Below the pieces are notes generated by a model. It was given only the letters and a program-made list of their open reading frames with translations, was not told the origin of the DNA and ran no database searches. Shown piece after piece: positions 4,827 to 45,946 of a stretch of DNA of 64,000 nucleotides. Made by a program: the position numbers and the translations under genes. The stretch lies in the IMG/VR virus record IMGVR_UViG_3300004881_000001, positions 1 to 64,000 of that record. One strand, written 5' to 3'. The stretch comes from a virus. The stretch's first letter is position 1. Each line of letters begins with the position of its first letter.

Positions 4827-5847
4827 AACTGTAATTAATATTGTTTAAAAATGTTTTTAATTTATCGTACCCAAACTTTTCTACAAAGTCTGAAGGATCT
4901 TTCTCAGTGTCTTTAGGTAAAAAAATAGCCTTTATATGGTGTATACTCTCTAACTTCTTAGCTGCCTTCTCTCCCGCTTCATCGTTATCGTATAGAAATA
5001 CTATTTGAGAGAATCGATTTCTAAGTCCTTGAATAACTTCTTGCGGTATTCTCATAGCCTCCCCGTGAGGAGCAATAGCGGGTATTCCTAGTTTATGGAG
5101 AACCATTACATCTTTCAAAGACTTTGTGATTATAAGCCTTTCTCCCAACCTAGGTAATTGATCAAATCCCTGTAAGGTTTCTGAGGTGACGTTACTAAGC
5201 CACTTTTGCTTTTTGTTTTTAGCTAATGGTTGGTATATTTTCCAAGAATCTCTACCGTCACTTAGTTTGCCGAAATAATACCCATAACAAATCTTATCTC
5301 TGTTTATATTCTTAAAGCCTTTTCTACTATGCATAGTTAGGCTTTTGACGGGGAATATATTAAATTTTTTCAGTATCTTAACCCCTATACCATATTTATC
5401 CTTCCAGTAAGTGCCATCTATCTTCTCCCACTTCCTTCTATATACTTTTAAAGTTACGGGTACTTTGTACTCTTCTAAGTCCTCATCCTTTAGATTATAA
5501 GTCTTTGGATTAATATTAGGAGCAGTAGGTAAAGAGCCGCTATTTAGATTGTTAAAGCCTAGACAAAAATCTCTATTAATCATACACAAAGCCCCTATAA
5601 AATCTACTGCGTATCTCTTCATTATATAGTTGAAGCAATTTAAAGAATCCCCAGTACTAAAATCAAAGTAGTTAAGTTTTTTACCAGATAGATATATTTT
5701 ACAACTGGGATTATTATCCTTTCTTAATTCACTTCTAAAAAGAGTACCTATTTCTTTAAAGTTAGATATATATGCTTTAAAAATATCATACTCAGATACT
5801 TTACTTAAAATGTTTTCTTTACTTACAACTCTATTCCCGTAACTCAT
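4795..5847 (-). CDS. DNA primase, Toprim domain
   Basis: Toprim-like LIITKSLKDVMVLHKLGIPAIAPHGE ... IVFLYDNDEAGEKAAKKL. Confidence 0.7.
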   Translation of the reverse strand: MSYGNRVVSKENILSKVSEYDIFKAYISNFKEIGTLFRSELRKDNNPSCKIYLSGKKLNYFDFSTGDSLNCFNYIMKRYAVDFIGALCMINRDFCLGFNNLNSGSLPTAPNINPKTYNLKDEDLEEYKVPVTLKVYRRKWEKIDGTYWKDKYGIGVKILKKFNIFPVKSLTMHSRKGFKNINRDKICYGYYFGKLSDGRDSWKIYQPLAKNKKQKWLSNVTSETLQGFDQLPRLGERLIITKSLKDVMVLHKLGIPAIAPHGEAMRIPQEVIQGLRNRFSQIVFLYDNDEAGEKAAKKLESIHHIKAIFLPKDTEKDPSDFVEKFGYDKLKTFLNNINYSYEQELESSNP

Positions 5848-5849
5848 AT

Positions 5850-5879
5850 ATTTAAAGTAGTAAGGGGCTAAAAGCCCCC
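5850..5879 (-). terminator. possible intrinsic terminator after the SSB-like gene
   Basis: GGGGCT-AAA-AGCCCC 6-bp GC stem (5864..5878), followed on the minus strand by TTACTACTTT; the T-run is weak. Confidence 0.3.
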
Positions 5880-5904
5880 TACATTTTTAATTAATATTCA
5901 ACTC

Positions 5905-6522
5905 TTAAAACAAAAGATCATCGTCGCCTGCCGAACTAGAGCCTGCTGCGCCCATAGCTTCCTTCTCCTCCTCAGAAACTTCGTCTACAGGAGCCTCGTA
6001 TAGATCATACTTAGGATCTGTTTTAAATCTAGATTCCGAAGCACTAGTACCGCCTTTTTCTATAAATGCAGGGATGAACGGTAAAGAGGGTCTGTATTTA
6101 CCGTCTTTAGTGTTTAATTTTAAAACTACTTTTAAGTTAAACTTTTTACCAATAGCCTCATTGTCAGAAAGTAATTTAGAGACATTATCTATAAAGTCTG
6201 AAAACCCTAAAGAATTTTCCACTGCTTGATAATAAGTCTCTTCATCAACTACCTTTGTACAGATGTGGAGTACACTAGTATTCACCTTGTCTTGCAAAAA
6301 AGGATTATCTGAATCGAAGTACGAATGTCTAAAAGTAGCCCCATTAGGCTGCTTGAAAACAATCTCAGCCCTATTTTCAGACACTACTCCTTCCTTATTC
6401 ACTGCCATTCCAAAGCTAACTAATACGCAGCCTTCTACTCTTTCTCCCGTCATTACTGGGATTGAGGAATATCCTTCGGTAATCGCACTACCGTTTTCCC
6501 CCATTCTTGAACCGTAACCCAT
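5905..6522 (-). CDS. ssb: single-stranded DNA-binding protein (putative; T7 gp2.5 / SSB-like acidic tail)
   Basis: C-terminus ...SSAGDDDLLF, an acidic tail ending in an aromatic residue like bacterial SSB DDDIPF and T7 gp2.5; lies between primase and ERF recombinase. Confidence 0.45.
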   Translation of the reverse strand: MGYGSRMGENGSAITEGYSSIPVMTGERVEGCVLVSFGMAVNKEGVVSENRAEIVFKQPNGATFRHSYFDSDNPFLQDKVNTSVLHICTKVVDEETYYQAVENSLGFSDFIDNVSKLLSDNEAIGKKFNLKVVLKLNTKDGKYRPSLPFIPAFIEKGGTSASESRFKTDPKYDLYEAPVDEVSEEEKEAMGAAGSSSAGDDDLLF

Positions 6523-6629
6523 AATTTAAATGTGTTTTTAATTATTAATTTGTAGGACATTTGTCTAAACCTACTATAAAGATGCCCCGTTATCTCCGTA
6601 GTAGGATTGAAGTAATGGCTAAATACTTT

Positions 6630-7181
6630 TTATGTATTTAAAGCTTTAACTTCTTTCATTAAATTTTCTTCATCTTTAGCTAAAATAGTGAAGGATTTCT
6701 TAGCTTCCTCTATAGATTTACCTTTAGCTAAGAAAGCTATTACTTTCTTCCATTCAGGAGTTCCTTGCTTTAGTTGAGGTTTCTTTCCCGTGTTACCTGC
6801 TGATTGATTCCCATCGTCATCCTCTCCTTCAACAATTAAGTTTAAAAAGGCGCACTGTGCGTATCTTTTTTGGTACGTTAAAGATGAGCCTATACCTTGA
6901 GGATCGTTTTTTGAGGGAGTCATTATAAATGATTCCTCAACCCATTGAGAGGATTTAGCGTGAAGTATTCTAGTTGTTAGTCCATTCTCACCTGCTGGAG
7001 CTTGTATAACTATCAATCCATTCTTAACTAGATGAGGTTTTATAGCTTTCTGTATAAACTCTAGTTTAGCGTATTTTGTCTTAAAAAAAGGATTTTTAGA
7101 TTCCTTTACTATAGGCTCTACTTCCTCGCTAAATTTTAACAAAGCTAATCCTAGTTCTGATATTTCTTCTGTTTGTTTCAT
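6630..7181 (-). CDS. erf: ERF-family single-strand annealing recombinase
   Basis: KNPFFKTKYAKLEFIQKAIKPHLVKNGL ... DPQGIGSSLTYQKRYAQCAFLNLIVEGEDDDGN. Start moved to ATG 7181 (MKQTEEIS), 1 nt after the upstream stop; the track start is 7226. Confidence 0.7.
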   Translation of the reverse strand: MKQTEEISELGLALLKFSEEVEPIVKESKNPFFKTKYAKLEFIQKAIKPHLVKNGLIVIQAPAGENGLTTRILHAKSSQWVEESFIMTPSKNDPQGIGSSLTYQKRYAQCAFLNLIVEGEDDDGNQSAGNTGKKPQLKQGTPEWKKVIAFLAKGKSIEEAKKSFTILAKDEENLMKEVKALNT

Positions 7182-7182
7182 A

Positions 7183-7446
7183 CTATTTATTAATTTTAAG
7201 TGTGTCTCCAACTTGGTACTCTTCAAAAGTTACTAATTCCCAACCTCTTCCAGTTGCGTCAGTTATTGCGTACTTAAAAGCCCCATATTTAGACTCAGTA
7301 ATACGTTCAGCTTTGTAAACTACAAGGTTTTGCTTCCCCACCCAGACTTTGTGTGAAGGGTAACTATCACAAGCCATAAATAATACAGTAGCTAAGGTCA
7401 CGTATAAAAAATACTTAATTTTGTTTTTAATTTTAAATGTTTTCAT
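7183..7446 (-). CDS. small lipoprotein (87 aa)
   Basis: Signal peptide with lipobox-like LFMAC|DS. Confidence 0.55.
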   Translation of the reverse strand: MKTFKIKNKIKYFLYVTLATVLFMACDSYPSHKVWVGKQNLVVYKAERITESKYGAFKYAITDATGRGWELVTFEEYQVGDTLKINK

Positions 7447-7555
7447 TTTGTTTTAGTTTTTAAAAGTAGTAGAGGGTGAAGCAGAAACGAATTCTTACTT
7501 CTTAAAGACGTATTCCTTGTTTGCCCGTGTACACTGAGGCTCGCTTACCTCGACT

Positions 7556-7637
7556 CTACTACCAATAACCCTAATTTACATTAAATATATCATAACTCCA
7601 AATAAAATTCATTAAAACGTAATTTTACTCGGTCGTT
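7556..7637 (-). repeat. 82-bp promoter-plus-hairpin repeat, copy R1
   Basis: 80/82 identical (aligned by eye) to 9205..9286. On the minus strand: hairpin TAAAATT-ACGTTTTAATG-AATTTTA (7603..7627), then a TATATTTA -7-like box (7582..7589). Confidence 0.85.
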
Positions 7638-7650
7638 ATAGCCAATTAAA

Positions 7651-7767
7651 CTATTCGCCATTTATATACTCTTTTATTAAGTCGTCAAGTGCAAATTCAT
7701 CAAGGTTTCTAATCCAATCAAACAATACTTCTCGTTTTTCTTCTTCTGTCATTTCTTCTATATTCAT
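7651..7767 (-). CDS. small acidic ORF (38 aa), own call
   Basis: Own translation: MNIEEMTEEEKREVLFDWIRNLDEFALDDLIKEYINGE; sits between repeat elements; below the track size cutoff. Confidence 0.3.
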   Translation of the reverse strand: MNIEEMTEEEKREVLFDWIRNLDEFALDDLIKEYINGE

Positions 7768-7791
7768 TTTTATTTATTTAAAATAACTGGC

Positions 7792-7918
7792 TATAACAAC
7801 GTATAAAATTAATACGGGTTAAATGCCTAATTTCAGCGAATTACCATTTAATTAAGTTAAAGCAGTACGGATGGTTTTCGCATTCTATTCCCGTACTAAT
7901 CTTATACAAACCGTTAGC
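7792..7918 (-). repeat. long bracketed palindromic element (TATAAC...GTTAGC)
   Basis: tataacaacgtataaaa ... cttatacaaaccgttagc arms; inner hairpin agtacgg/ccgtact (7865..7897); ends 7 nt before the stop of gene 7925..8179. Confidence 0.6.
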
Positions 7919-7924
7919 GTGCAT

Positions 7925-8179
7925 TTAAGCCTTACCTAAAAACTTTAAGCCTACTTTAAGTCTTGCTCTTGCATTACATCTTTGTAAATAGTCTTTTTCA
8001 TATTGGTCAGTAACAGTTTCGATTTGGTATTTTAATAGACTTGTAGAATAGCTTATCATAGATTCTTTTTCATCTTCACTACAAGCATCACTACAATCAG
8101 TTCCTAAAGCAAACCTTAAAAGTCTTAAAGCGAAGGTCTTGTCTTTTACAATTCTGTTATCTTTTATTGGGTTGTCCAT
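7925..8179 (-). CDS. hypothetical protein (84 aa)
   Basis: ORF track; cassette-like gene flanked by repeat elements. Confidence 0.5.
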   Translation of the reverse strand: MDNPIKDNRIVKDKTFALRLLRFALGTDCSDACSEDEKESMISYSTSLLKYQIETVTDQYEKDYLQRCNARARLKVGLKFLGKA

Positions 8180-8193
8180 ATCTAAAAAAGCAC

Positions 8194-8322
8194 CCTAACA
8201 AATTATAAAAACAAAAGCTATTCAGGTGCTTATTTCTAAGGCTTTTGTCTGTTTGGTATATGCTACCCTTATTCGTGCGTGGAGCATATTTACACGCTTC
8301 AATTTTTATACAAACCGTTAGC
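8194..8322 (-). repeat. long bracketed palindromic element (CCTAAC...GTTAGC)
   Basis: cctaacaaattataaaaa ... tttatacaaaccgttagc, same arm pattern as 7792..7918. Confidence 0.55.
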
Positions 8323-8333
8323 TACAATGAAAA

Positions 8334-8564
8334 TTACTTAACAAAGTTTGGCTTACCATCAAATGCTTTCCAATATAAATACCTCCATCCACTTTGCACG
8401 TAAGGGCTTTTACCTTCCTTATCAAGCAACCTATGCCCACCACTTTTACTAACATTTAAATGTGTTGGATTTTTTATTGTAACCTCAAAGCCATCACTCC
8501 ATTTGTAAGTTCTGTATTCTTCACTTTGTATTTCTATAAAAAATAATCCGCTTTCGTTTATCAT
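8334..8564 (-). CDS. hypothetical protein (76 aa), downstream partner of the Panacea-domain gene
   Basis: ORF track; 56 nt downstream of 8621..9121 on the same strand. Confidence 0.5.
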   Translation of the reverse strand: MINESGLFFIEIQSEEYRTYKWSDGFEVTIKNPTHLNVSKSGGHRLLDKEGKSPYVQSGWRYLYWKAFDGKPNFVK

Positions 8565-8620
8565 ATCCGTAATTTTAAAAGATGACCAGCACCTATATTC
8601 AAACCTTTTTTTGCCATACT

Positions 8621-9121
8621 CTAAAAATTAGAATAATGACCTAAAGTATTTTGTGTATTTACTACTGGAATCCTATTGAAAGAATCTAATGCAAAATCAA
8701 CTGTAGTGTCTTTGTTGATAATTACTTCTTTATCACTCGGTTGATCGCTTAAAAGACCTTTTCTACTGTTTTTCCAAGGTAAATCATTATGAGTTAAATC
8801 AACTAAATCTGAACCTGTTAAATGACCATAAGACCTCCATATATCATTTAAATGATTTACAGTTATATCATCCACATCCAAATTCACAGCTCTATTACTT
8901 GGAATAATAGAACTTCTTTTCATAAACTTAAAATTAGCCCAAACATCATAAACCATAGGACCATATATCCAAGCTTGAATTCTGTCGTTAAACAACCTTT
9001 TGTTATTTTTAACAAAAAACCAAAGCTGAGAATAATACAGTAACTTCTGTAATTTCAACGGACTAACACCTTTCTTAATAAAGAAAGAAGAAATATCTAA
9101 TGCTCTATAATTTGTTTTCAT
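8621..9121 (-). CDS. Panacea / DUF4065 (SocA/GepA-like) antitoxin-domain protein
   Basis: VSPLKLQKLLYYSQLWFFV...IQAWIYGPMVYDVW and ...LTHNDLPWKNS match the DUF4065 hallmarks (KLQKLLYY, AW.YGPV, TH...PW). Confidence 0.7.
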   Translation of the reverse strand: MKTNYRALDISSFFIKKGVSPLKLQKLLYYSQLWFFVKNNKRLFNDRIQAWIYGPMVYDVWANFKFMKRSSIIPSNRAVNLDVDDITVNHLNDIWRSYGHLTGSDLVDLTHNDLPWKNSRKGLLSDQPSDKEVIINKDTTVDFALDSFNRIPVVNTQNTLGHYSNF

Positions 9122-9153
9122 TTTAGTTTTGAATTAGCAATTTCTTGCTTTTG

Positions 9154-9185
9154 CAAATGTACAATATTAATTAATATATAAAAAA
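9154..9185 (-). promoter_or_regulatory. Bacteroidota-type promoter for the Panacea-domain gene
   Basis: Minus strand: TTTT-N20-TACATTTG (-7 box = 9154..9161), about 33 nt upstream of ATG 9121. Confidence 0.45.
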
Positions 9186-9204
9186 CTATCTGAATATCAA
9201 AAAA

Positions 9205-9286
9205 CTACTGCCAATAACCCTAATTTACATTAAAAATATCATAACTCCAAATAAAATTCATTAAAACGTAATTTTACTCGGTCGTT
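9205..9286 (-). repeat. 82-bp promoter-plus-hairpin repeat, copy R2
   Basis: Direct repeat of 7556..7637 with 2 mismatches; hairpin 9252..9276; -7-like TATTTTTA (9231..9238). Confidence 0.85.
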
Positions 9287-9294
9287 GTAAACAA

Positions 9295-9546
9295 TTAAGT
9301 TGTAGTATTTGCATCACAATCTGTTCGCATGCAACTAAATCCTATGCCTTGTTCTCTTTTTAGCAGTCCACACTTACAACTTAACAGTTCAGCTTCGCTT
9401 TTACAACAATGCGTATAATTAATAGCTTCTTCCATAGCATCTATAAAGGTTTCGTTTGGCACATCATCAAATCTTGCTGTTGGTGCTTTTGCAAAAAACT
9501 TTTGTATGTGTTTATCTAATATTTCATTTAATTTTTTTCTGTCCAT
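9295..9546 (-). CDS. hypothetical Cys-rich protein (83 aa)
   Basis: ORF track; CCKSEAELLSCKCGLLKREQGIGFSCMRTDCD. Confidence 0.5.
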   Translation of the reverse strand: MDRKKLNEILDKHIQKFFAKAPTARFDDVPNETFIDAMEEAINYTHCCKSEAELLSCKCGLLKREQGIGFSCMRTDCDANTTT

Positions 9547-9595
9547 TTTTATTGTTTTAGTTATTATTCTAAGCTACTAATCATACACTTTCAAG

Positions 9596-9811
9596 TTAGC
9601 GGTAATTATTTAAAAACCATCTCCAATGCTCCGCTTTCCATAAGTTGGGATTTTTAATGTCTTCTAATTCTGTTGGTGGGTACTCGTTTTTTGTACTGTT
9701 AAACAGCTTGTTAACGTGATTTTTATGTAAGCAATACCACATATCAGCTTTTTCTAAAGCACTACCGCTAACACCACCTAAATTTAATTTATTCTCTTCG
9801 TTCATAAACAT
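9596..9811 (-). CDS. hypothetical protein (71 aa)
   Basis: ORF track; the stop codon lies inside a GCTAAC motif (CGC TAA CT). Confidence 0.5.
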   Translation of the reverse strand: MFMNEENKLNLGGVSGSALEKADMWYCLHKNHVNKLFNSTKNEYPPTELEDIKNPNLWKAEHWRWFLNNYR

Positions 9812-9839
9812 AATTTTAGCTTAAACGTTAGCAACAAGG

Positions 9840-10199
9840 CTACGTTACTGCCTTTAATTCAGATTCTAGTTCCGAAACTTGCTCCTCTAATTCGTCAATT
9901 CTATTATTTAAGTGTGTTATTTCACTTTCAGCATCAGAAGCCCTTTCCTCTGCATAATCTATTTGCCTACCAGCTTCTTTCCTCATACCCTCATTTGTTT
10001 TTCTAACATCTTCAAAGTTTAGTTCAAAGTCGTTATACATTCGGACAGCGTATTCTTTTACAAATACCTCTTTCGCTTCCCCTTCAAGTAAAGGACAACA
10101 ATCATCTACCATACTTTCAAGATAATTAGCTATATCGTTTTTAAATCTTTCTATACTTCTATCAATGTCAGGGCAAGTATGTCCGTAATCTAATGCCAT
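9840..10199 (-). CDS. hypothetical protein with C-terminal coiled coil (119 aa)
   Basis: ORF track; heptad-like ITHLNNRIDELEEQVSELESELKAV. Confidence 0.55.
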   Translation of the reverse strand: MALDYGHTCPDIDRSIERFKNDIANYLESMVDDCCPLLEGEAKEVFVKEYAVRMYNDFELNFEDVRKTNEGMRKEAGRQIDYAEERASDAESEITHLNNRIDELEEQVSELESELKAVT

Positions 10200-10246
10200 A
10201 ATTTTAGTTTTTATTTATTTTTCGTGTTTCATTGTTAACATGTTTA

Positions 10247-10381
10247 TTATCTGGTATATTTATTATAAATCTTAATAGCCTCGTTAATGTCTTCTTTGTT
10301 TTTGTGTTCTCCAATTAGGTCGCCAAATATGTATTCTTTCAATGAATCTAAGTTATTTAATTCCCAAGTTATATCTTCCAT
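10247..10381 (-). CDS. small ORF (44 aa), own call
   Basis: Own translation: MEDITWELNNLDSLKEYIFGDLIGEHKNKEDINEAIKIYNKYTR. Confidence 0.3.
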   Translation of the reverse strand: MEDITWELNNLDSLKEYIFGDLIGEHKNKEDINEAIKIYNKYTR

Positions 10382-10461
10382 ACTCGTTTAAATTTCTGTG
10401 TTTACGTTTAGCGTTGTAAGTCATATTTACACCTAACCGTACTTTTCTCCATTATGCTACT

Positions 10462-10650
10462 TTAATTATTTCTATTCGACCATTCATTGTATATTGAAAT
10501 CAATAACATTGAGAAGCCAAAAGTTCCCATCGCTAATATAATAATAATTTCTAACTTTGGCAACTTTTTTGGATATTCTTCTTGTAAAATTATCAAATTT
10601 GTACATAACCCTGTAGCTGCCCACACTAGTAAAAGTACTATCGCTTCCAT
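10462..10650 (-). CDS. small membrane protein (62 aa, 2 hydrophobic segments)
   Basis: ORF track; IVLLLVWAATGLCTNLIIL and IIIILAMGTFGFSMLLISI. Confidence 0.45.
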   Translation of the reverse strand: MEAIVLLLVWAATGLCTNLIILQEEYPKKLPKLEIIIILAMGTFGFSMLLISIYNEWSNRNN

Positions 10651-11135
10651 AATTGCTCTAAATTATTCCCTAAAATTTTATTTATGAGGAGGTCGATTTC
10701 TACCTTATGGTCTAACCTCTCCAGAAGTAACGAAGGAACTAATTGCCCTAATTTCCTTAAAGCCATGTTCTCGGACACATTCTCAGGAAATATTATCCTA
10801 TAATATGTACTTTCACCCTTTAGCTTTATCCCTACCCAACCTCGTTTCTTTTTACCCCCCAACTTAAAACTAGCTCCTATAAAACAGTTTGCTTCAGTAT
10901 CTTCCCCCAACTCTTCTAATATAGTCTGGGTAAAGGCAACATTGTCTTCGTTGACTCCGTGATTTAAATATTTCTTGTAGGGAGTTGGGTTACAATACAA
11001 CTCCCAACTCATTACATTTTTAGCGGCTTTAGTACTGTTTAACAGGCTATTAGCTATGGAACTACCCGTACCTTTCTCAAAACCCTTTATTTTCAGTTTA
11101 TGTTTAGTAATTTCTTCTATAATTCGATTGTTCAT
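10638..11135 (-). CDS. hypothetical protein (165 aa)
   Basis: ORF track; directly downstream of the helicase gene. Confidence 0.6.
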   Translation of the reverse strand: MNNRIIEEITKHKLKIKGFEKGTGSSIANSLLNSTKAAKNVMSWELYCNPTPYKKYLNHGVNEDNVAFTQTILEELGEDTEANCFIGASFKLGGKKKRGWVGIKLKGESTYYRIIFPENVSENMALRKLGQLVPSLLLERLDHKVEIDLLINKILGNNLEQLWKR

Positions 11136-11140
11136 ATTAG

Positions 11141-12259
11141 TTAAATTTTTTCAACCCAAACTCCGTTTTGTTTTCTATATTTAGCTCTATTGTTTTTATA
11201 ACTTTTTGCGTAATCGTAATGTGCTTCTCCCATTTCCGCTGCTGGGGGGAGTTCTCTAAAGGTTCCCGAGGGGGCTATAAAATTTAAACCTACATTAATC
11301 CCAGGCTCCCCATCTCTATTCTCCAAAATTTCAAAGTTTCTAAAACTGTTCCCCATTATGCCTACATTATAGTTTTGGAATCTATCTAATTTATGTTTAT
11401 AAGGACTAAATAAAGCCATAATCACGTTAGCGTCCCTAGTAGTATATTTTGAATCTCCAAAATCTTTTAGCGTAGGGGTCAGCCTGTTCTTAGTTTGTCT
11501 CTCCTCACTCTCCGCACTAAAAGATAACTGCTGAATAACTACGGGTATAGCTCTAAAGTTATTTCTCAAGCTTACTAAGTATTTACTCATCTTATCGATA
11601 TTTTGCTTAGTTGTGGAGCCTTTCTCATCCACCATTAAAGCAATATGATCTATAATTATAATCCAATATTTATTAGGGTCGTGAGGAGTGTAACTATCAA
11701 ACCTCATTATAGGAGTCCCATCAGGATCTTTATTAATGTTCTTTTTGTGTATTGTACCCATCTTTTCCGCTTTATCTCTAAGGTACTTATACATACCTGT
11801 AGGGTTGTCTGCCATATCATGGATGGTTACACAGTCTTGCATTTTTTCAAAATAATCTCTATAAGATAAAACTAATTCGTAAAGCTCGTCATTACAATGA
11901 TTTTTACCCCTGGATAGTATTGAGTTGACATCCGCTACTATCCCATAGTCATGCCATAACTTTCTAGCTATCCCTTTGATAATCTTAGTCTCTGAATCTA
12001 TCTCGTAAGAGAAGTAATCTATATCTAAGGTAATGCCTGAATCTGGATTATTGATTACATAGTCGTAAGCTCCATAGAAAAATATATCGTCAGCTAAAGA
12101 GGTTTTTCCTGCTTTTGTAGCTGCTCCTAAAAGATAATAAGTTTTTTGCTGTATATCAGGTAAATAACCTCGAAGCCTTTCAAAAGGTATGGGAATACCT
12201 TTATTATTACCGTCCCTACCTCTATTTATTTGTTCTACAGCTTTATCAAAAGTTCCCAT
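11141..12259 (-). CDS. replicative DNA helicase, DnaB/T7 gp4 C-terminal RecA-like fold
   Basis: Walker A YYLLGAATKAGKTSL; Walker B-like WIIIIDHIALM. Confidence 0.75.
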   Translation of the reverse strand: MGTFDKAVEQINRGRDGNNKGIPIPFERLRGYLPDIQQKTYYLLGAATKAGKTSLADDIFFYGAYDYVINNPDSGITLDIDYFSYEIDSETKIIKGIARKLWHDYGIVADVNSILSRGKNHCNDELYELVLSYRDYFEKMQDCVTIHDMADNPTGMYKYLRDKAEKMGTIHKKNINKDPDGTPIMRFDSYTPHDPNKYWIIIIDHIALMVDEKGSTTKQNIDKMSKYLVSLRNNFRAIPVVIQQLSFSAESEERQTKNRLTPTLKDFGDSKYTTRDANVIMALFSPYKHKLDRFQNYNVGIMGNSFRNFEILENRDGEPGINVGLNFIAPSGTFRELPPAAEMGEAHYDYAKSYKNNRAKYRKQNGVWVEKI

Positions 12260-12262
12260 AAG

Positions 12263-13018
12263 CTATTCTGTTGATTCATTAGGATATAATTCTTTTACCA
12301 AATCACTTTGCCAGTACTCTTTACTATTTATATCCATTATAGTAAGTTTCCCATTACGACCTCCTCCTGTATCTAAATTCCAAACATTGCATTTATGCAT
12401 AGGTTTATCTTCCTGCCAAGCCATTGTAGTAGTATGTCCTATGAATATCTCTGAATACGGTCTAAGTAACTTAGGTATAATACCTGTACCTTTATAATTA
12501 CTATGGCCCGATACAGCCTTTTTTTCCCAAAGATCTCTATCCCAATAATAGTTAGTTAAACTACTTTCGTCTCCTAAACCTTCTTCTGAGGTATACCCCC
12601 CATGAACAAAAGCCCTATTTTTATCGTCTACATAGTATAAATGTAAATACTTAAAAAATTTAACGTGCTTTTCCCAATCAAAATCATGATACATCTTAAA
12701 GTTTTCATAAGCTTCTTTAGTAGTGTTTCCTCCATTGTGAATCCAATTGGGATCTTCTACTGTAGTTTCTAACCACTTTTGGCACCATACATCATGATTG
12801 CCTTTTATAAAAATAGGCTTAAACTGAGATTCCTCCTTTATAGTTATAAGTAAATCTACACACTCTGGAGATTGACTCCATCCGTCTACATAATCTCCTA
12901 AGCATATTAACAAATCTTCTTTAGGATTATAATTACATCGATCCAAAACTTGCCGTAAAGCCTTGAAACCCCCGTGTAAATCTCCCATACATAATTCTCT
13001 TTTGGGTTTTAGTTCCAT
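12263..13018 (-). CDS. Ser/Thr-type metallophosphatase (lambda PP / ApaH-like)
   Basis: GDLHGGFKAL ... LICLGDYVDGW ... IKGNHD ... FVHGG ... IGHT motifs in canonical order. Confidence 0.8.
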   Translation of the reverse strand: MELKPKRELCMGDLHGGFKALRQVLDRCNYNPKEDLLICLGDYVDGWSQSPECVDLLITIKEESQFKPIFIKGNHDVWCQKWLETTVEDPNWIHNGGNTTKEAYENFKMYHDFDWEKHVKFFKYLHLYYVDDKNRAFVHGGYTSEEGLGDESSLTNYYWDRDLWEKKAVSGHSNYKGTGIIPKLLRPYSEIFIGHTTTMAWQEDKPMHKCNVWNLDTGGGRNGKLTIMDINSKEYWQSDLVKELYPNESTE

Positions 13019-18100: not shown

Positions 18101-18128
18101 AGTCTCTTTAATTAATCGTTATATGTAA

Positions 18129-18159
18129 ATATACAACTTATTTTTATAATAAACAAACT
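18129..18159 (-). promoter_or_regulatory. class B promoter (copy 1)
   Basis: Minus strand: AGTTTGTTTATTATAAAAATAAGTTGTATAT(TTA) = TTTG-N20-TATATTTA; 31/31 identical to 20498..20528. Confidence 0.6.
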
Positions 18160-18285
18160 ATTTACTGTTTTTTAGGTACTTCTTAGCTGCTTTTTTGAGT
18201 TTTTTATTAGGCCCTTTGTTTTTCCTAATAGCTTTTAGAAACTTTATTAAATCCTTTTTACTAATCTTTATCATGTCCACATCTG

Positions 18286-20469: not shown

Positions 20470-20497
20470 TTTTATCTATTTTAAATTATTTATTTGA

Positions 20498-20528
20498 ATA
20501 TACAACTTATTTTTATAATAAACAAACT
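20498..20528 (-). promoter_or_regulatory. class B promoter (copy 2)
   Basis: Identical 31-mer to 18129..18159; TTTG-N20-TATATTCA. Confidence 0.6.
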
Positions 20529-20531
20529 TTT

Positions 20532-21315: not shown

Positions 21316-21346
21316 TAAAAAAAGCCTTAAGATAACTCCTAAGGCT
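21316..21346 (-). terminator. intrinsic terminator
   Basis: Minus strand: AGCCTTA-GGAGTTATCT-TAAGGCT followed by TTTTTTT. Confidence 0.55.
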
Positions 21347-21355
21347 TCTGTCTAA

Positions 21356-21490: not shown

Positions 21491-21508
21491 AGCTCCAATC
21501 TTATACTA

Positions 21509-21539
21509 TAAAGATACGATTTATTTTTCTAATTTCCAA
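21509..21539 (-). promoter_or_regulatory. class A promoter (minus-strand copy)
   Basis: Minus strand: TTGGAAATTAGAAAAATAAATCG-TATCTTTA. Confidence 0.5.
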
Positions 21540-21542
21540 CTA

Positions 21543-21983
21543 TTATTCATATAAAATATGAAATAATTCATAAGGGTCGTCTCCCCTGTCTGAGAACACC
21601 TTCCAAATTAAATTTATATCTAATTTAATCCGATCGTTATGCTCGAAGATTATGAATTTAAACTCATTTCCAATAATTTTAAGAACTATATAGTTATTTA
21701 CGTTAGTTTTTAACTTCACTAATTTACCGTATTCCCTATCTGGGTCATATAGATAGAGTCCTAACCCGTCCTTACAATATTTCCAACCTACGGATACGGG
21801 ACAGCCTAAGTCCCTAACTACTATTTTATTTAAATCTCCAAAATCGTTGTGGTTACAGTAGGAAGTGTCGTCTAATTTAAGTGAGTCAAAATACACCGCA
21901 AACACATAAGTATTAATTGAGTCTGTTTGGGCTACTACAAGCGATGTAATAGCTAAAAATATTATTGTTATTATCTTCTTCAT
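21543..21983 (-). CDS. secreted protein (146 aa); paralog family with 28961..29494
   Basis: Signal peptide MKKIITIIFLAITSLVVAQ; shared YC.D.L.LYLY and PY.LF.L blocks. Confidence 0.55.
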   Translation of the reverse strand: MKKIITIIFLAITSLVVAQTDSINTYVFAVYFDSLKLDDTSYCNHNDFGDLNKIVVRDLGCPVSVGWKYCKDGLGLYLYDPDREYGKLVKLKTNVNNYIVLKIIGNEFKFIIFEHNDRIKLDINLIWKVFSDRGDDPYELFHILYE

Positions 21984-21987
21984 AATT

Positions 21988-22054
21988 CTAATTTACATTA
22001 AATATATCATAACTCCAAATAAAATTCATTAAAACAGAATTTTACTCGGTCGTT
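21988..22054 (-). repeat. promoter-plus-hairpin repeat, copy R3 (67 nt)
   Basis: 65/67 identical to 7571..7637; hairpin 22020..22044; -7-like TATATTTA (21999..22006), 15 nt upstream of ATG 21983. Confidence 0.8.
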
Positions 22055-22064
22055 AGCATTAATA

Positions 22065-22712: not shown

Positions 22713-22747
22713 TCTATTTAATTTATTCGTTAATAATCCGTACTAAT

Positions 22748-22797
22748 GCTAACAACGTATAAAGTGCATTAAAACGCACCATACACAATGCGTTAGC
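22748..22797 (-). repeat. 50-nt GCTAAC...GTTAGC bracketed palindromic element with conserved-loop hairpin
   Basis: gctaacaacgtataaa-GTGC-attaaaac-GCAC-catacacaatgc-gttagc; lies between the stop of 22803..22958 and the start of 22065..22712. Confidence 0.75.
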
Positions 22798-22802
22798 AAC
22801 AA

Positions 22803-25171: not shown

Positions 25172-25194
25172 AGTTGTTGTTTTAATATACTACA

Positions 25195-25224
25195 ATATAC
25201 AACTTATTTTTATAAAAACAAATT
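25195..25224 (-). promoter_or_regulatory. class B promoter (copy 3)
   Basis: Minus strand: AATTTGTTTTTATAAAAATAAGTTGTATAT(TGT). Confidence 0.55.
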
Positions 25225-26155
25225 AAAATAGGTGTGAAAGTTTATTTCTAACCTCAACAAACACAAAATGTTTTAAAGTGCCGAAATTAATAGTGGGATT
25301 TTTATATTTTTTAATAAAATTCCAACAGTCCTCCTTAACCACATCATAGTAAATGGTATTGAGAAGTTGGGGAATGTTTTTACTGCTAAAACCTCTTTGC
25401 TCTAACTCTATCTTAGCTTGCACTTTCTCGCATAAAGCTTTAGTTACAAATTCTTCAGCTATCTTCTCTTCTATAAGTTTCTTACCTTTGTTTAATTCAG
25501 TAGCCCCATGAACTTTAGTATGTTTCTCCTTAAACTCAGAGGTCACTATTTTAGCCCATGTTTGTCTATTGTATTTATTTTTAAAATCATAATTTTTAAT
25601 GACAATACCTTCCCCAACGCCTTTACCGTCTTCTATTAAGAATACGTTTTTAATTAATTGGTTAATCAGTTGTTCGTAGGAAGCGTTATTAATAGCGCAT
25701 ATAGGCACAATATAGTCTAAACCCTTTTCTTCCAATTTACCGCAATAATCTTCATAGTGCAAATATTTAATAGTGCTATCCCCTTCGTGAGTAATCTCTT
25801 CAGCATTTTTTTCTACCGATATATCAAAAATATAAAAGCGTCTCCACGCATCTTCTCTATAAGTTTTTAACGCATGAGGTACTAACCACTCTCCATGGAG
25901 TCTGTGGGTAGGATTCTCCTTTAAATACTTTATTAAAGAACTTTGTTGTTTAGCCCACTCATAAAAACCCGCATTGTCTTTATCTAAGGTTAAGTGCCTA
26001 TTTCTGCTCCCTGCTTGTATTTTTCCATCTTTGTCTAGCCAAACGCTGGCATTAGTTCCATCTAATTTAGGAAAAATATAGCATAATCCTAATTCTATGT
26101 TCTGAACTTCTGGTGTTCCAAACCTTTCTAAATGTTGATATTTTTTAAATTCCAT
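25223..26155 (-). CDS. ATP-dependent RNA ligase (Rnl2 / PF09414-like nucleotidyltransferase)
   Basis: Motif I FPKLDGTN (KxxGxN type), motif III LHGEW, motif IV EGIVIK, motif V KIVTSEFKEK. Confidence 0.6.
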   Translation of the reverse strand: MEFKKYQHLERFGTPEVQNIELGLCYIFPKLDGTNASVWLDKDGKIQAGSRNRHLTLDKDNAGFYEWAKQQSSLIKYLKENPTHRLHGEWLVPHALKTYREDAWRRFYIFDISVEKNAEEITHEGDSTIKYLHYEDYCGKLEEKGLDYIVPICAINNASYEQLINQLIKNVFLIEDGKGVGEGIVIKNYDFKNKYNRQTWAKIVTSEFKEKHTKVHGATELNKGKKLIEEKIAEEFVTKALCEKVQAKIELEQRGFSSKNIPQLLNTIYYDVVKEDCWNFIKKYKNPTINFGTLKHFVFVEVRNKLSHLF

Positions 26156-28261: not shown

Positions 28262-28283
28262 AACTTTGCTGTTTTAATTTATA

Positions 28284-28314
28284 TAAAGATACGATTTATT
28301 TTTACAATTCCAAA
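28284..28314 (-). promoter_or_regulatory. class A promoter (minus-strand copy)
   Basis: Minus strand: TTTGGAATTGTAAAAATAAATCG-TATCTTTA, same extended -33 block as the plus-strand copies. Confidence 0.55.
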
Positions 28315-28317
28315 TTT

Positions 28318-28662
28318 TTATTTATTTTCTTTCCTCCATTTCCTAAACTCGCTGACTGTCATATGACTTAATTCCCTCTTCAAGGATCTGTAGGCGCTTT
28401 GCGCTTCCTCTAGTTGTATTTTTAAACTTAAATTTTTCTCTATTAAAGATTCTCTACTCTCTACAAAATACTTTAGTTCCTTCGTTATCGCTAAAACCGC
28501 TTCTGACCCTGTTAAATACTCTCTACCTAAGGTACTTCGTCCCTGTTCTATGATTACTGATTTTTTATCTTTAGATACTTTCTTTAAACCTTCCTCTAGA
28601 CGGTTTATTTTATCTTCCAATCCTTTAAACTCCTCAAGAGTTATTGTTACTGTTGCTGCCAT
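28318..28662 (-). CDS. coiled-coil protein (114 aa)
   Basis: ORF track. Confidence 0.55.
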   Translation of the reverse strand: MAATVTITLEEFKGLEDKINRLEEGLKKVSKDKKSVIIEQGRSTLGREYLTGSEAVLAITKELKYFVESRESLIEKNLSLKIQLEEAQSAYRSLKRELSHMTVSEFRKWRKENK

Positions 28663-31659: not shown

Positions 31660-31701
31660 GGTTTGTTTTTTATTTGAGTATACGTGTTGAGTTTATAAAA
31701 G

Positions 31702-31753
31702 GTTACAACGCAACCTAAAATTCATTAAAACGTAATTTTAGGTTGTTGTTAGC
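31702..31753 (-). repeat. bracketed palindromic element with 11-bp stem and conserved loop
   Basis: aacctaaaatt-cattaaaacgt-aattttaggtt (31712..31744), outer ggttacaacg / gttgttagc; GTTAGC overlaps stop codon 31753..31755. Confidence 0.75.
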
Positions 31754-31950
31754 TACAATAAACTATCTATAACAATGTCAAGTATCTTTTTACTTGCTTT
31801 GTAATCATTCCACGCTTTTAGTACTTCGGGTTTTTCTTTTTCAAGAATAGGCATGAGTCTTTCAAAAGTACTTAACCTTTCTAAATCTTCTTTTGCTTGC
31901 CAAAAATATTTTAAGTCGTTTAAGTCTTGTTCTGTTAATTTATTTTCCAT
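31753..31950 (-). CDS. hypothetical protein (65 aa)
   Basis: ORF track; cassette-like. Confidence 0.5.
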   Translation of the reverse strand: MENKLTEQDLNDLKYFWQAKEDLERLSTFERLMPILEKEKPEVLKAWNDYKASKKILDIVIDSLL

Positions 31951-31986
31951 TTTATTTAATTTTAGTTTATTAATCCGCTTACAGTA

Positions 31987-32037
31987 GCTAACAATGTGTG
32001 TAGCACATTAAAACGATGCCATACACAAACCGTTACC
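31987..32037 (-). repeat. bracketed palindromic element (GCTAAC...GTTACC), homolog of 22748..22797
   Basis: gctaacaatg-TGTGTA-GCA-cattaaaacga-TGC-ca-TACACA-aaccgttacc. Confidence 0.7.
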
Positions 32038-32040
32038 CAC

Positions 32041-32080
32041 AATAAAATTCATTAAAACAGAATTTTACTCGGTCGTTAGC
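32041..32080 (-). repeat. partial promoter-plus-hairpin repeat, copy R4 (hairpin half only)
   Basis: aataaaattcattaaaacagaattttactcggtcgttagc; identical over 37 nt to the matching part of copy R3 (22018..22054); lacks the -7 box part. Confidence 0.75.
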
Positions 32081-32291
32081 GTTCATTTGCCAACGCTTCT
32101 TGTTTTCTAATAATTAGCTTTGCTTCCATCCTTTGAGCGTCAAACCTAATATCATCTATTAAGTATATTGCATCAACTACATTTCCTTTCTTTATTAAAT
32201 CTGTAAGCAAATCTAATTTTCCGCAAATCAACTCATCTCTTGGCGTATCTATTGTTTTAGGCATTTTATTGGTTTTATTGTCAACGCACAT
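32076..32291 (-). CDS. hypothetical protein (71 aa)
   Basis: ORF track; the stop TAA is embedded in GCTAAC (CGC TAA CG). Confidence 0.5.
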   Translation of the reverse strand: MCVDNKTNKMPKTIDTPRDELICGKLDLLTDLIKKGNVVDAIYLIDDIRFDAQRMEAKLIIRKQEALANER

Positions 32292-32299
32292 AAACGAAC

Positions 32300-32350
32300 G
32301 CTAACAAAATTTAAAATTCATTAAAACGAAATTTTACTTTCGGCATTAGC
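32300..32350 (-). repeat. bracketed palindromic element (GCTAAC...ATTAGC) with conserved-loop hairpin
   Basis: Hairpin taaaatt-cattaaaacga-aatttta (32312..32336). Confidence 0.7.
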
Positions 32351-32351
32351 A

Positions 32352-32570
32352 TTAATTAGTCTCGTACTTTAAAACTATCTCAATGCTTTTAACGTCCATC
32401 ATTGTTTTTTCTTTGTCTCTAATATAAGAAGGCAGGGTGTAACTTATCCATTTTAAATCTTCCTGTAAATCGTGTTCTTTTATACCAGAAGAACTACCTG
32501 TACTTTCCATTTTAGTACTGTCATTAAACGTCACCACTATTTTATTTCGTTGTTCGTAATTCATAATCAA
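32352..32570 (-). CDS. hypothetical protein (72 aa)
   Basis: ORF track; cassette-like. Confidence 0.5.
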   Translation of the reverse strand: MIMNYEQRNKIVVTFNDSTKMESTGSSSGIKEHDLQEDLKWISYTLPSYIRDKEKTMMDVKSIEIVLKYETN

Positions 32571-32575
32571 CTAAT

Positions 32576-32665
32576 GCTAACACAGGCTATAAATAAAAGC
32601 CTATTAAGTTTTGTAATAAAATTGAACATTTTTACTTGGCTTCAATTCATAGCCAAACCGTTATA
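32576..32665 (-). repeat. degenerate long bracketed element (GCTAAC...GTTATA)
   Basis: Contains hairpin aggct-ataaataaa-agcct and a decayed aaaat-tgaac-atttt hairpin. Confidence 0.45.
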
Positions 32666-32666
32666 T

Positions 32667-32912: not shown

Positions 32913-32943
32913 AATATTCTGTTTTTATTAACCCGTACTAAAA

Positions 32944-33005
32944 TATAACAATGTATAAAATACACCCTACGGGTCACTGCGTTGCATCTTATACTAAACG
33001 TTAGT
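32944..33005 (-). repeat. degenerate bracketed element (TATAAC...GTTAGT)
   Basis: tataacaatgtataaaa ... cttatactaaacgttagt, same arm pattern as 7792..7918. Confidence 0.45.
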
Positions 33006-33255
33006 AAACTAAATCATATATCTATGTTAATTACTTCACTTTGTTTATTTATTTAATGTTAACTGCTTGAATTTAAAGTCCCTATAGTTTGTTATTTTTC
33101 ACAAGAGCTTAATAAATTTGTATATTGATCTTGGATTGTTAATATAGTACTCTACAGTCTCGTTAATAATTTCTATTTCTGTTAGTTGTTTAAGTGTTTG
33201 CATCTCTTTTTTTTCTTTTCTGTTTTTTGGGCCCCCTAGGTCATTCTCCCAGATT

Positions 33256-33917: not shown

Positions 33918-34036
33918 AATATTTGTTTTTAATTGTTAGTCGCATAAAAGTGGTTCGAACACTAAAACGGGCTATCATCCGTTGCCTTCCGTTGGCTATG
34001 CGATATACTTAGTATACGTTGGTTGTTTGTTAAAGG

Positions 34037-34405
34037 TTACAGTTTATCAAAAAACTCTGTGATTTCCTCTCTCCATTCTTCAAAATCTTCTCTACATTTT
34101 TGACTAGCTAACAAAGAGGCTAGTACTTCACTATTAAGATTTTCAGCTGTATACCCCATTTCCTGTGCAATATCTAGACTATCAGTCAACGAAGGGTCAT
34201 GTTCCAATAAATAATCCATAGCTACATGGTAATAAATTATTTCTATATCAAAAGCCCTTGCATCTTCTAAACGTGATTGGATAAGATCAAAAGCGTTATC
34301 ATAATCTTCGATATCTGAGGTAGTTATATAATCTACTAGTGCTAGGTGGGTTGATTCAAACTTTTTTAAAAAGTCGGTAATCTTTTTGTCGTTTGTAGTT
34401 GTCAT
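34037..34405 (-). CDS. strongly acidic early protein (122 aa)
   Basis: ORF track; D/E-rich throughout; second gene of the leftward arm. Confidence 0.6.
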   Translation of the reverse strand: MTTTNDKKITDFLKKFESTHLALVDYITTSDIEDYDNAFDLIQSRLEDARAFDIEIIYYHVAMDYLLEHDPSLTDSLDIAQEMGYTAENLNSEVLASLLASQKCREDFEEWREEITEFFDKL

Positions 34406-34454
34406 AATCTTTGTTGTTGGTTATATTAATTATACGTTATTTATTTGTTAAAGG

Positions 34455-34604
34455 TTACAAAGTTTCGCAATATTCTTTAAGTATTTCATATTGCTGCTGT
34501 GTAATAGCCTTATCTTGCCTCCACATATCAAGAAGTTCATCCTGCATATGACTACAAACTGTCAACATCATCATCTTATCGTATAGTGTGTTATCTTTAA
34601 TCAT
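34455..34604 (-). CDS. small ORF (49 aa), first gene of the leftward arm, own call
   Basis: Own translation: MIKDNTLYDKMMMLTVCSHMQDELLDMWRQDKAITQQQYEILKEYCETL; the ATG is 3 nt after a -7 box. Confidence 0.35.
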   Translation of the reverse strand: MIKDNTLYDKMMMLTVCSHMQDELLDMWRQDKAITQQQYEILKEYCETL

Positions 34605-36964: not shown

Positions 36965-36993
36965 AAATAAATATAAAAAAATGTGTTAAATAA

Positions 36994-37025
36994 TTTGGAA
37001 TTGTCAAATATTCTTCGTATCTTTA
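36994..37025 (+). promoter_or_regulatory. class A promoter (copy 3)
   Basis: TTTGGAATTGTCA...TATCTTTA, TTTG-N20 spacing; embedded in the 31-nt exact repeat 36976..37006 = 37198..37228. Confidence 0.6.
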
Positions 37026-37030
37026 TATTA

Positions 37031-37174: not shown

Positions 37175-37215
37175 TTCTCACCTTAGACTATGTTCTCAAA
37201 AAATGTGTTAAATAA

Positions 37216-37247
37216 TTTGGAATTGTCATTTATTATGATTATCTTTA
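37216..37247 (+). promoter_or_regulatory. class A promoter (copy 4)
   Basis: TTTGGAATTGTCA-N-TATCTTTA with 20-nt spacer; no convincing ORF for about 800 nt downstream. Confidence 0.6.
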
Positions 37248-37547
37248 CTTTATAATTCCTTGTTAGTTCAAGGTTCTCTTCTCATAAGAACAGGGCAGCA
37301 CTTATAACACCTAAAAAAGTTGGACGTTATTTGGATCAGGTACATATGAAATATCAAAACTTTAGAAGATGCGGATGAAGGTTCTAGTTTTGTTCTGAGA
37401 GAAATTCCAGTTGTTTTTTGTGGCTGACACGATTGAAAATCAAAAATTAATAATTTTCCAAAGCTTTTTAAGTTTTGGACGGGCTGGAGAGGAGAGATTT
37501 TCAAATAGGATTGTATGAATTTTACTTAAAGAAGATTTATATAAGTT

Positions 37548-45890: not shown

Positions 45891-45899
45891 CGTTAAAAA

Positions 45900-45931
45900 T
45901 TTGGAATTGTCAAATTAAATTATTATCTTTA
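45900..45931 (+). promoter_or_regulatory. class A promoter (copy 5)
   Basis: TTTGGAATTGTCA-N-TATCTTTA with 20-nt spacer, 15 nt upstream of ATG 45947. Confidence 0.6.
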
Positions 45932-45946
45932 GTAATTGATTAAGAT

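Follow-up and report, generated by a model that had tools for sequence, protein, structure and literature searches.

A 64,000-nucleotide stretch of viral DNA (IMG/VR record IMGVR_UViG_3300004881_000001, positions 1 to 64,000; hereafter the window) contains two near-identical direct repeats, R1 and R2, which we regard, with a probability of roughly 55%, as copies of a portable intercistronic hairpin module giving homology for gene shuffling, placed around an accessory cassette of four genes. The hairpin belongs to a widespread, previously uncatalogued family of structured RNA motifs and is a portable, strand-specific intercistronic element of marine Flavobacteriia phages, located between co-oriented, mostly small genes. 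That it belongs to a large family spread across phages, in which loop and foot are conserved, was not included in a preliminary description of the same DNA, made from the letters alone, which had compared the repeats with the promoter-early stem-loop (PeSL) cassettes of T4-type phages. The observation made there was confirmed as a whole and its interpretation was partly supported: the gene-shuffling half of the analogy held, given the indels and breakpoints at family hairpins in other phages and the hypervariable slot occupied by the repeats, while the promoter half did not.

Direct repeats and hairpins in the window

Recounting gave the same figure for R1 (7556-7637) and R2 (9205-9286) as the earlier alignment by eye, with 2 of 82 positions differing (80/82 matching), and the gapless identity was found to extend to 94 nucleotides (nt) at 95% (7556-7649 against 9205-9298). 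The 67-nt copy reported at 21988-22054 (R3) was likewise recovered, identical to R1 at 65 of 67 positions. In the three-way alignment the 67-nt core common to R1-R3 begins exactly at the hairpin foot AACG and stops at ...AAATTAG; beyond it, the similarity of R1 and R2 continues for about 11 nt in the 5' and 16 nt in the 3' direction. The three copies have a 3' tail of 27-43 nt in common, and therefore R1 and R2, whose identity takes in 43 nt outside the hairpin, form a 94-nt direct repeat around the cassette. Every hairpin copy in the window is intergenic and lies on the minus strand, sense to the early genes, and the genes from about 1 to 34.8 kb are all encoded on this strand. At 27-33%, the G+C content of the R1-R2 segment with its borders (7400-9600) is lower than that of the flanking replication genes (34-38%).

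7556..7649, minus strand: R1, hairpin module with 43-nt 3' tail, between the stop of open reading frame (ORF) 7651..7767 and the leader of 7183..7446
9205..9298, minus strand: R2, with 95% identity to R1 in 94 nt, flanked by the stop of 9295..9546 and by the Panacea gene 8621..9121
21988..22060, minus strand: R3, with the 67-nt core (foot to ...AAATTAG) as in R1 and R2, directly upstream of 21543..21983

The earlier suggestion that the repeats hold a hairpin was borne out by a strand-specific predicted fold, with about -17 kcal/mol for the sense and -5 kcal/mol for the antisense RNA (-17.7 and -5.3 kcal/mol, respectively, for the R1 hairpin), the antisense fold being weaker because two G.U pairs turn into A.C mismatches. 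On the minus strand R1 reads UAAC-GA-CCGAGUAAAAUU-[A-CGUUUUAAUG]-AAUUUUAUUUGG-A-GUUA. The predicted geometry, with a foot of 4-6 bp, a bulge, a 12-bp stem and a 3-bp apex, would be compatible with an RNase III site. A small asymmetric internal loop follows the foot, and the apex is made up of one bulged base, the pairs C-G, G.U and U-A, and then the UUUA loop, which together give (N)CGUUUUAAUG. Six exact copies of the hairpin core pattern AAAATTCATTAAAACNNAATTTT are present in the window against 0.05 expected. The hairpin-only copy noted previously at 32041..32080 is real, and two further exact cores, at 31717-31739 and 32313-32335, were absent from the earlier listing. Moreover, the loop GTTTTAATG is also carried by two different stems, with the loops at 22767-22775 and 32006-32014.

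7591..7640, minus strand: hairpin in R1, with TAAC foot, GA bulge, 12-bp stem (two G.U), loop A-CGUUUUAAUG, 3' arm and GUUA foot
9239..9290, minus strand: hairpin in R2, predicted sense fold
22010..22055, minus strand: hairpin in R3, predicted fold with z = -3.8
31700..31756, minus strand: hairpin copy 4, apex kept, compensatory lower stem AACCUAAAAUU/AAUUUUAGGUU, adjoining the motif GTAACCTTTTATAAA...ACGTATAC
32027..32083, minus strand: hairpin copy 5, whose foot TAA is the stop codon of 32076..32291
31985..32045, minus strand: tandem hairpin in which foot and loop (UCGUUUUAAUG) are kept but the stem (GUGUAUGGCA/UGCUACACAC) differs
32296..32352, minus strand: hairpin copy 6, with a GCUAAUG...UGUUAGC foot and yet another lower stem
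22744..22799, minus strand: variant hairpin, foot and loop kept on a different stem, -22.9 kcal/mol
32940..33007, minus strand: element with TAACG...TGTTA foot and the same lower stem, with a different apical insert
32571..32666, minus strand: element framed by a TAACG...TGTTA-type foot, ATAACGGTTTGGCTAT...ATAGCCTGTGTTAGC

Genes alternate with foot-framed elements in two arrays, the R1-R2 region (7.4-9.3 kb) and 31.7-33.0 kb. Two tandem hairpins with the CGUUUUAAUG loop are found at 31985-32083 and also in locus L006, there about 30 nt upstream of its canonical hairpin (minus-strand orientation). Two further short motifs recur in the window. One, TAGTACGG(A/G)TTA-like, follows several of the hairpins at a distance of a few nt, with the next ATG some 20-30 nt further on (minus strand of the window, 22737-22745, 32932-32940 and 7890-7898, with the variant AAGCGGATTA at 31971-31980; also in loci L004, L009 and L019); it is present in about 10% of the members of the hairpin family and may represent either a site of processing or a signal specific to the phage. 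The other, GTAACCTTT(A/T)A(C/T)AAA...ACGTATA, is intergenic on the minus strand near the start of the early block (31692-31706, 34026-34040 and 34444-34458), and one of its copies directly adjoins hairpin copy 4. Two candidate readings of the repeats were rejected: a conserved peptide starting from the loop AUG (MNFIWSYDIFNVN followed by a stop in R1-R3, ending where the R3 similarity ends), because its length and sequence vary freely in other copies (MNFK-stop, MNFKPC-stop or read-through), and a miniature inverted-repeat transposable element, for which the terminal inverted repeat is 4 nt only and no target-site duplication is present.

The hairpin family in other phages

The pattern TAAAATTNNGTTTTAATGAATTTTA matched 23 IMG/VR contigs, while among 185,579 bacterial and archaeal species, represented by one genome each, it was found in 4 contigs only, all of them from metagenome-assembled genomes (MAGs) of Flavobacteriaceae, Flavobacteriales and Bacteroidales. 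A slightly shorter pattern was present in at least 120 metagenome contigs, including TARA Oceans scaffolds. The cultured Maribacter phage Panino has one variant copy with an extended apex, at 42393-42459. A subfamily keeps the foot and stem and has an extra small helix extending the loop (UCGUG-NGAGG-NACGA-GNAAUG), with sites in loci L175 (2393-2459, i.e., PP540027.1 42393-42459, minus strand), L018 (5140-5205) and L007 (11840-11902).

The family sites are intergenic in 117 of 124 distinct cases, with the nearest upstream ORF co-oriented at 96/105 and the downstream ORF at 93/107 sites. The median distance from the stop codon to the beginning of the foot is 8 nt and that from its end to the next start 37 nt, and in 27 of 85 cases the TAA of the foot itself serves as the stop of the preceding gene. 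No relationship exists between the flanking genes of different contigs, which also share essentially nothing with the genes of the window; no shared neighbouring protein that might be the partner of the hairpin was found among the hairpin-bearing loci. Recurring in otherwise unrelated gene contexts, the module therefore supplies a patch of shared sequence at gene boundaries.

An exact pattern of 22-23 bases yielded most of the family members. Over 127 distinct sequences, covariation is seen in the three stem pairs (14-44, 15-43 and 16-42) that lie below the segment this pattern fixes: doubly changed cells number 113 against 46 in shuffles, none of 500 shuffles reached this value, and the signal collapses in slid controls. 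Pair 14-44, for instance, is G-C in 59, A-U in 26, U-A in 19 and G.U in 7 of these sequences. G.U pairs outnumber A.C pairs in the family by 20 to 6, a G.A mismatch recurs at pair 16-42, and the foot YTAAC(G)...(T)GTTAR is conserved. In copies recovered by the covariance model, CGTTTTAATG is retained although the apical stems are quite different (AACAGG/CCTGTT, AAAACC/GGTTTT and AAGGTG/CACTTT), and the conservation of the loop is therefore real. A second CGTTTT motif follows 10-50 nt downstream of the hairpin in 17/110 members (about 15%) and in 0/110 further away. Rfam 15 gave no match in the window at the gathering threshold and none on the hairpins (7300-9400) at E <= 10; a tRNA/tmRNA search of the window was also negative. 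Literature searches for an existing description of the hairpin returned only the PeSL papers.

Gene exchange at family hairpins

Loci L006, L010, L021 and L023 share 99.5-100% identity over 3.4-5.8 kb on the downstream side of the hairpin, while immediately upstream of it L006, L010 and L023 differ by nested indels of 385, 736 and 1123 nt, corresponding to one or two genes each, with junctions in or beside the TAACGA foot. Two genes of L023, 1123 nt in length, are missing from L010, the junction being the 8-nt repeat TAGTATTG, and L006 lacks 736 nt with a methyltransferase-like gene, the junction being a duplicated (T/G)TAACGA foot. In four more groups (L102/L132/L170, L004/L124, L065/L145 and L097/L143) near-perfect identity starts at the 5' foot or in the 5' arm, and the upstream sequences are unrelated. 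The variable crossover positions argue for exchange within a short shared sequence and not for one fixed cleavage site. In total, 7 of 17 groups sharing the downstream flank had different upstream flanks, compared to 0/14 for the converse, and control boundaries placed 250 nt away gave 6/19, 1/14, 2/14 and 0/13. The nucleotide-level junctions at the hairpins are clear, while the excess over controls is modest. This breakpoint behaviour matches the PeSL model of Arbiol et al. (PMC2839356).

The hypervariable slot and its cargo

Relatives of the window were represented by 26 IMG/VR loci with 57-71% amino-acid identity in the helicase. The gene order conserved in them is PolA, helicase, a 200-aa (amino acid) gene, DnaB-type helicase, a gap, a 205-aa gene, primase and a RusA-like gene. 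In the window, 4.6 kb separate the helicase gene from the 205-aa gene; this gap is 1.2-1.8 kb in most relatives and 6.5 kb in L049, and the relatives are devoid of homologues of the window genes at 6630-11135 (ERF, cargo and neighbours), save for weak matches (23-26%) to 10638-11135 in two loci. Since the gap is variable and its genes have no homologues in the relatives, R1 and R2 are located in a hyperplastic slot. Comparable repeat families were not found in the 26 loci. Megablast of positions 5000-12000 against INPHARED phages gave no match, the two genes flanking the repeats were not on record in an exact-protein look-up, the ERF and Panacea proteins had no relatives in IMG/VR, and a pattern specific for the tail of the repeats had 0 matches in IMG/VR and the JGI metagenomes.

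The segment between R1 and R2 contains four ORFs, including the Panacea gene, as described earlier; the other three are ORFans. Two of the three intergenic regions inside it hold larger structures framed by a TAACG...TGTTA foot.

8621..9121, minus strand: cargo gene 1, 166 aa, Panacea (SocA-like antitoxin) domain, PF13274, E = 5.9e-17
8334..8564, minus strand: cargo gene 2, 76 aa, weak match to phrog_27874
7925..8179, minus strand: cargo gene 3, 84 aa, phrog_24038 (family of unknown function)
7651..7767, minus strand: cargo ORF 4, 38 aa, no family match, doubtful coding
8195..8321, minus strand: second foot-framed element, between 8334..8564 and 7925..8179, ending in terminator-like GGGTGCTTTTTT
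7793..7917, minus strand: long foot-framed hairpin, foot CTAACGGTTTGTATAA...TTATACGTTGTTAT, between 7925..8179 and 7651..7767, -34.9 kcal/mol, z = -2.6
7447..7560, minus strand: long leader (about 110 nt) from R1 to the ATG of 7183..7446, with a predicted terminal helix AGUAGAG...CUCUACU
6630..7226, minus strand: gene of an ERF-family single-strand annealing protein, the second gene downstream of R1

The fold of the leader at 7447..7560 was not significant against shuffles (z = -1.3). The product of the Panacea-domain gene is antitoxin-like and may plausibly have an anti-defence function; PADLOC had no match for the cargo genes. The ORFs flanking the repeats are without a Pfam family or have matches solely among PHROGs of unknown function. 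Scanning of the ORFs of the 64-kb window with PHROGs and Pfam revealed no integrase, tyrosine recombinase, transposase or HNH protein.

Several other genes of the window are of separate interest. A second antitoxin-like domain, Unstab_antitox (Pfam, E = 8e-6), is encoded by one of 50 small early ORFs. Also encoded in the early block are an RNA ligase (25223-26155, phrog_548) and a NinI-like phosphoesterase (12263-13018, phrog_246), which suggests a capacity for RNA repair, e.g., against anticodon nucleases. The late block on the plus strand (35-64 kb) includes a GroEL-like chaperonin (phrog_5725, E = 3e-87) among the genes for portal, terminase and major head protein; Maribacter phage Panino likewise encodes GroEL and GroES.

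Proposed mechanism

In the shuffling module proposed here, exchanges, insertions and deletions of whole genes, as seen at family hairpins in other phages, would occur at the hairpin in this phage as well. Recombination between R1 and R2 would delete, circularise or duplicate the cassette, with the phage's own ERF annealing protein as the most likely catalyst, and the same homology might let cassettes be captured from co-infecting phages bearing the hairpin. In addition, the hairpin probably punctuates the polycistronic early transcript, where it may serve as an attenuator, a processing or stability site or a site for a loop-specific factor; our confidence in this second role is low.

Several points weigh against the shuffling module. 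The enrichment of mosaic junctions at the hairpin is suggestive and not statistically secure, controls being also high (6/19), and many of the compared contigs are duplicates or close kin, so that the samples are not independent. The spacer from stop codon to hairpin measures only a few nt, and therefore any viable intergenic junction would map near the foot. None of the 26 helicase relatives has the hairpin within +/-10 kb of the helicase gene, and recombination at R1/R2 itself is inferred, because no close relative was found in the collections searched. The invariance of the apical stem in the pattern-found set is uninformative, because the search pattern fixed this stem. Finally, a role as homology patch alone does not account for the conservation of loop and foot, which implies a function at the RNA level or in protein binding.

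Promoter and terminator signals

The main alternative is a true PeSL-type cassette, i.e., a self-contained terminator-promoter module in which the gene downstream would be expressed from the tail TATATTTA as a functional -7 element of Bacteroidota type and the hairpin would terminate the upstream unit; this we consider unlikely. The Bacteroidota promoter has -33 TTTG and -7 TAnnTTTG about 19 nt apart and was scanned for as TTTG-N17-21-TAnnTTTR. All three long repeats contain a -7-like box:

7582..7589, minus strand: box of R1, TATATTTA
9231-9238, minus strand: box of R2, TATTTTTA
21999-22006, minus strand: box of R3

The box fits TAnnTTTA and has the same eight letters as the -7 element in the best canonical promoter of the window (18126-18157), the sole difference between R1 and R2 within it falls on an 'n' position, and TATATTTA in R3 does lie 15 nt before the ATG of 21543..21983, as stated in the preliminary description. 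Furthermore, hairpin copy 4 adjoins another repeated promoter-like motif, and the stem-loops of PeSLs may overlap promoter boxes (PMC2839356). However, R1-R3 were absent from the window matches to the full promoter pattern, their sole TTTG being located 9 nt from the box instead of 17-21 nt, and TATATTTA alone was not enriched in the AT-rich window (21 occurrences against 15 expected). Family-wide, TAnnTTTR follows the hairpin in 18/110 members, which is at the level of shuffled sequences (19 +/- 3.9), and the full promoter in 0/110; many members are only 20-30 nt away from the next ATG, too close for a promoter to fit in between. The claim that the repeats carry a promoter was thus not supported, and the hairpin is not demonstrably a promoter.

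Canonical Bacteroidota-type promoters of the form TTTG-N19/20-TAT(A/C)TTTA are present elsewhere in the window, for example on the minus strand at 18126-18157 and 28284-28314 and on the plus strand at 36994, 37216 and 45900. Promoter-like repeats with conserved spacers that fit or nearly fit the consensus were observed on the minus strand at 18122-18162, 20491-20531, 25188-25228, 21507-21550 and 28282-28325 and on the plus strand at 36976-37030, 37198-37252 and 45882-45936, the latter with TTTGGAATTGTCA in common. These repeated sequences are probably the real promoters of the phage for the host RNA polymerase.

As for the terminator half of such a cassette, T-runs within 16 nt after the 3' foot are enriched in the family, 52/111 against 3/111 in a control window. 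However, they are located 2-11 nt from the stem without adjoining it and partly reflect the second CGTTTT motif, R1 and R3 have no adjacent U-tract, and canonical terminators with a GC stem and U-tract are present elsewhere in the window (5864-5879 and 21317-21347).

Other explanations

A purely regulatory RNA operator, at which a loop-specific protein (antiterminator, translational repressor or endoribonuclease) would co-regulate the early genes, is in our opinion rather improbable. The likeness of the copies would then be due to constraint and their overlap with junctions would be a by-product. Such an operator would agree with a loop conserved on many different stems, a conserved foot with the recurrent G.A mismatch, the strictly sense orientation, and the tandem hairpins or nearby second CGTTTT in about 15% of the family. 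On the other hand, the hairpin-bearing loci have no candidate partner protein in common, no RNA-binding family was recognised among the early ORFs of the window, and the 95% identity of R1 and R2 over 94 nt, of which 43 nt are outside the hairpin, would be left unexplained. An RNA operator is, moreover, compatible with the shuffling module and does not exclude it.

It would be a bolder, and in our view quite improbable, proposal that the hairpin with its TAACG foot and CGUUUUAAUG loop is the recognition element of a dedicated factor (an RNA- or single-stranded DNA-binding protein, nuclease or recombinase) in an active cassette system moving units of hairpin plus downstream gene at the foot. 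In function such a system would correspond to integron cassettes, although its polarity would be the opposite and IntI would be lacking.

An integron-like site-specific system proper, with TAAC...GTTA-footed hairpins as attC-like folded sites at whose foot a dedicated recombinase inserts and excises cassettes, is very improbable. The hairpins do resemble attC sites, being imperfect, structured and bulged, placed right after the stop codon of each small ORF, with ...AAC/GTT... feet, a variable interior and a single orientation in the gene-hairpin-gene arrays, and one natural indel is bounded by a duplicated TAACGA. The layout of stop codon, YTAAC, hairpin and GTTAR recalls the attC core RYYYAAC...GTTRRRY, of which the conserved feet YTAAC(G)...(T)GTTAR match only 4-5 nt. 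However, the hairpin is linked to the downstream and not to the upstream gene (7/17 against 0/14 groups), which is the opposite of ORF-attC cassettes, its junction positions vary between the TAGTATTG repeat, TAACGA and the inside of the 5' arm, and the G.U bias favours folding of the sense strand or RNA over a bottom-strand DNA fold. This explanation was rejected on polarity, folding strand and the absence of an integrase, tyrosine recombinase or transposase from the window. Least credible is a neutral local duplication or gene conversion, with the 94-nt identity as a recent accident without repeat function: it would agree with the presence of only two or three long copies and with the lack of relatives that could show selection, but not with three copies in three gene contexts with sharp boundaries at the hairpin foot, nor with conservation and covariation across the family.

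Comparison with known systems

Intercistronic hairpins are known from the early genes of phage T7, whose RNase III sites (about 20 bp with an internal loop) are present in several copies per genome on a polycistronic early transcript. Their layout is similar, but they need no conserved apical loop, and to our knowledge they do not act as recombination junctions. The REP/BIME elements (repetitive extragenic palindromes and bacterial interspersed mosaic elements) are short imperfect palindromes located just after stop codons in many copies, but they are chromosomal and multiplied by RAYT transposases, while the hairpin described here is essentially absent from the 185,579 genomes (4 matches, in MAG contigs) and no transposase is encoded in the window. 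According to Botstein's module theory and the boundary sequences of lambdoid phages, modules are exchanged at a short conserved intergenic 'linker' common to otherwise unrelated phages. The hairpin differs from such a linker in being structured and strand-specific with its own conserved loop, implying an additional function at the RNA level.

The PeSL cassettes of T4-type phages, for which shuffling and mini-circles have been described (Arbiol et al., 2010, PMC2839356; Comeau et al., 2014, PMC4122927), resemble the repeats in arrangement: intergenic motifs of about 50-100 nt with a stable stem-loop are repeated in hyperplastic regions beside ORFans, the motif starts at the stop codon of the upstream gene, and indels between close relatives are bounded by it, the last having been found here for the family in other phages. 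A pair of direct repeats around an ORFan cassette would likewise yield a deletion and a mini-circle. In contrast to PeSLs, the hairpin module has no demonstrable host-type promoter, and its stem is AU-rich and not a G/C-tract terminator. PeSLs are defined by their promoter consensus and have variable stem-loops, while here the loop and foot are conserved across many unrelated phages. The host clade is also different (Flavobacteriia), and the phage is not T4-like.

Significance

With more than 120 distinct instances and clear covariation, the hairpin family represents an abundant structured RNA motif. For the window itself, the practical consequence is that the segment at 7.6-9.2 kb should be genetically unstable. 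Were the dedicated-factor proposal true, the hairpin would give physical form to the 'linker' long postulated in theories of modular phage evolution. Provided that the hairpin serves as a shared linker for recombination, it would offer a sequence-defined handle on the movement of accessory genes between unrelated marine phages, and the old idea of modular evolution would become testable in cultured systems such as Maribacter phage Panino.

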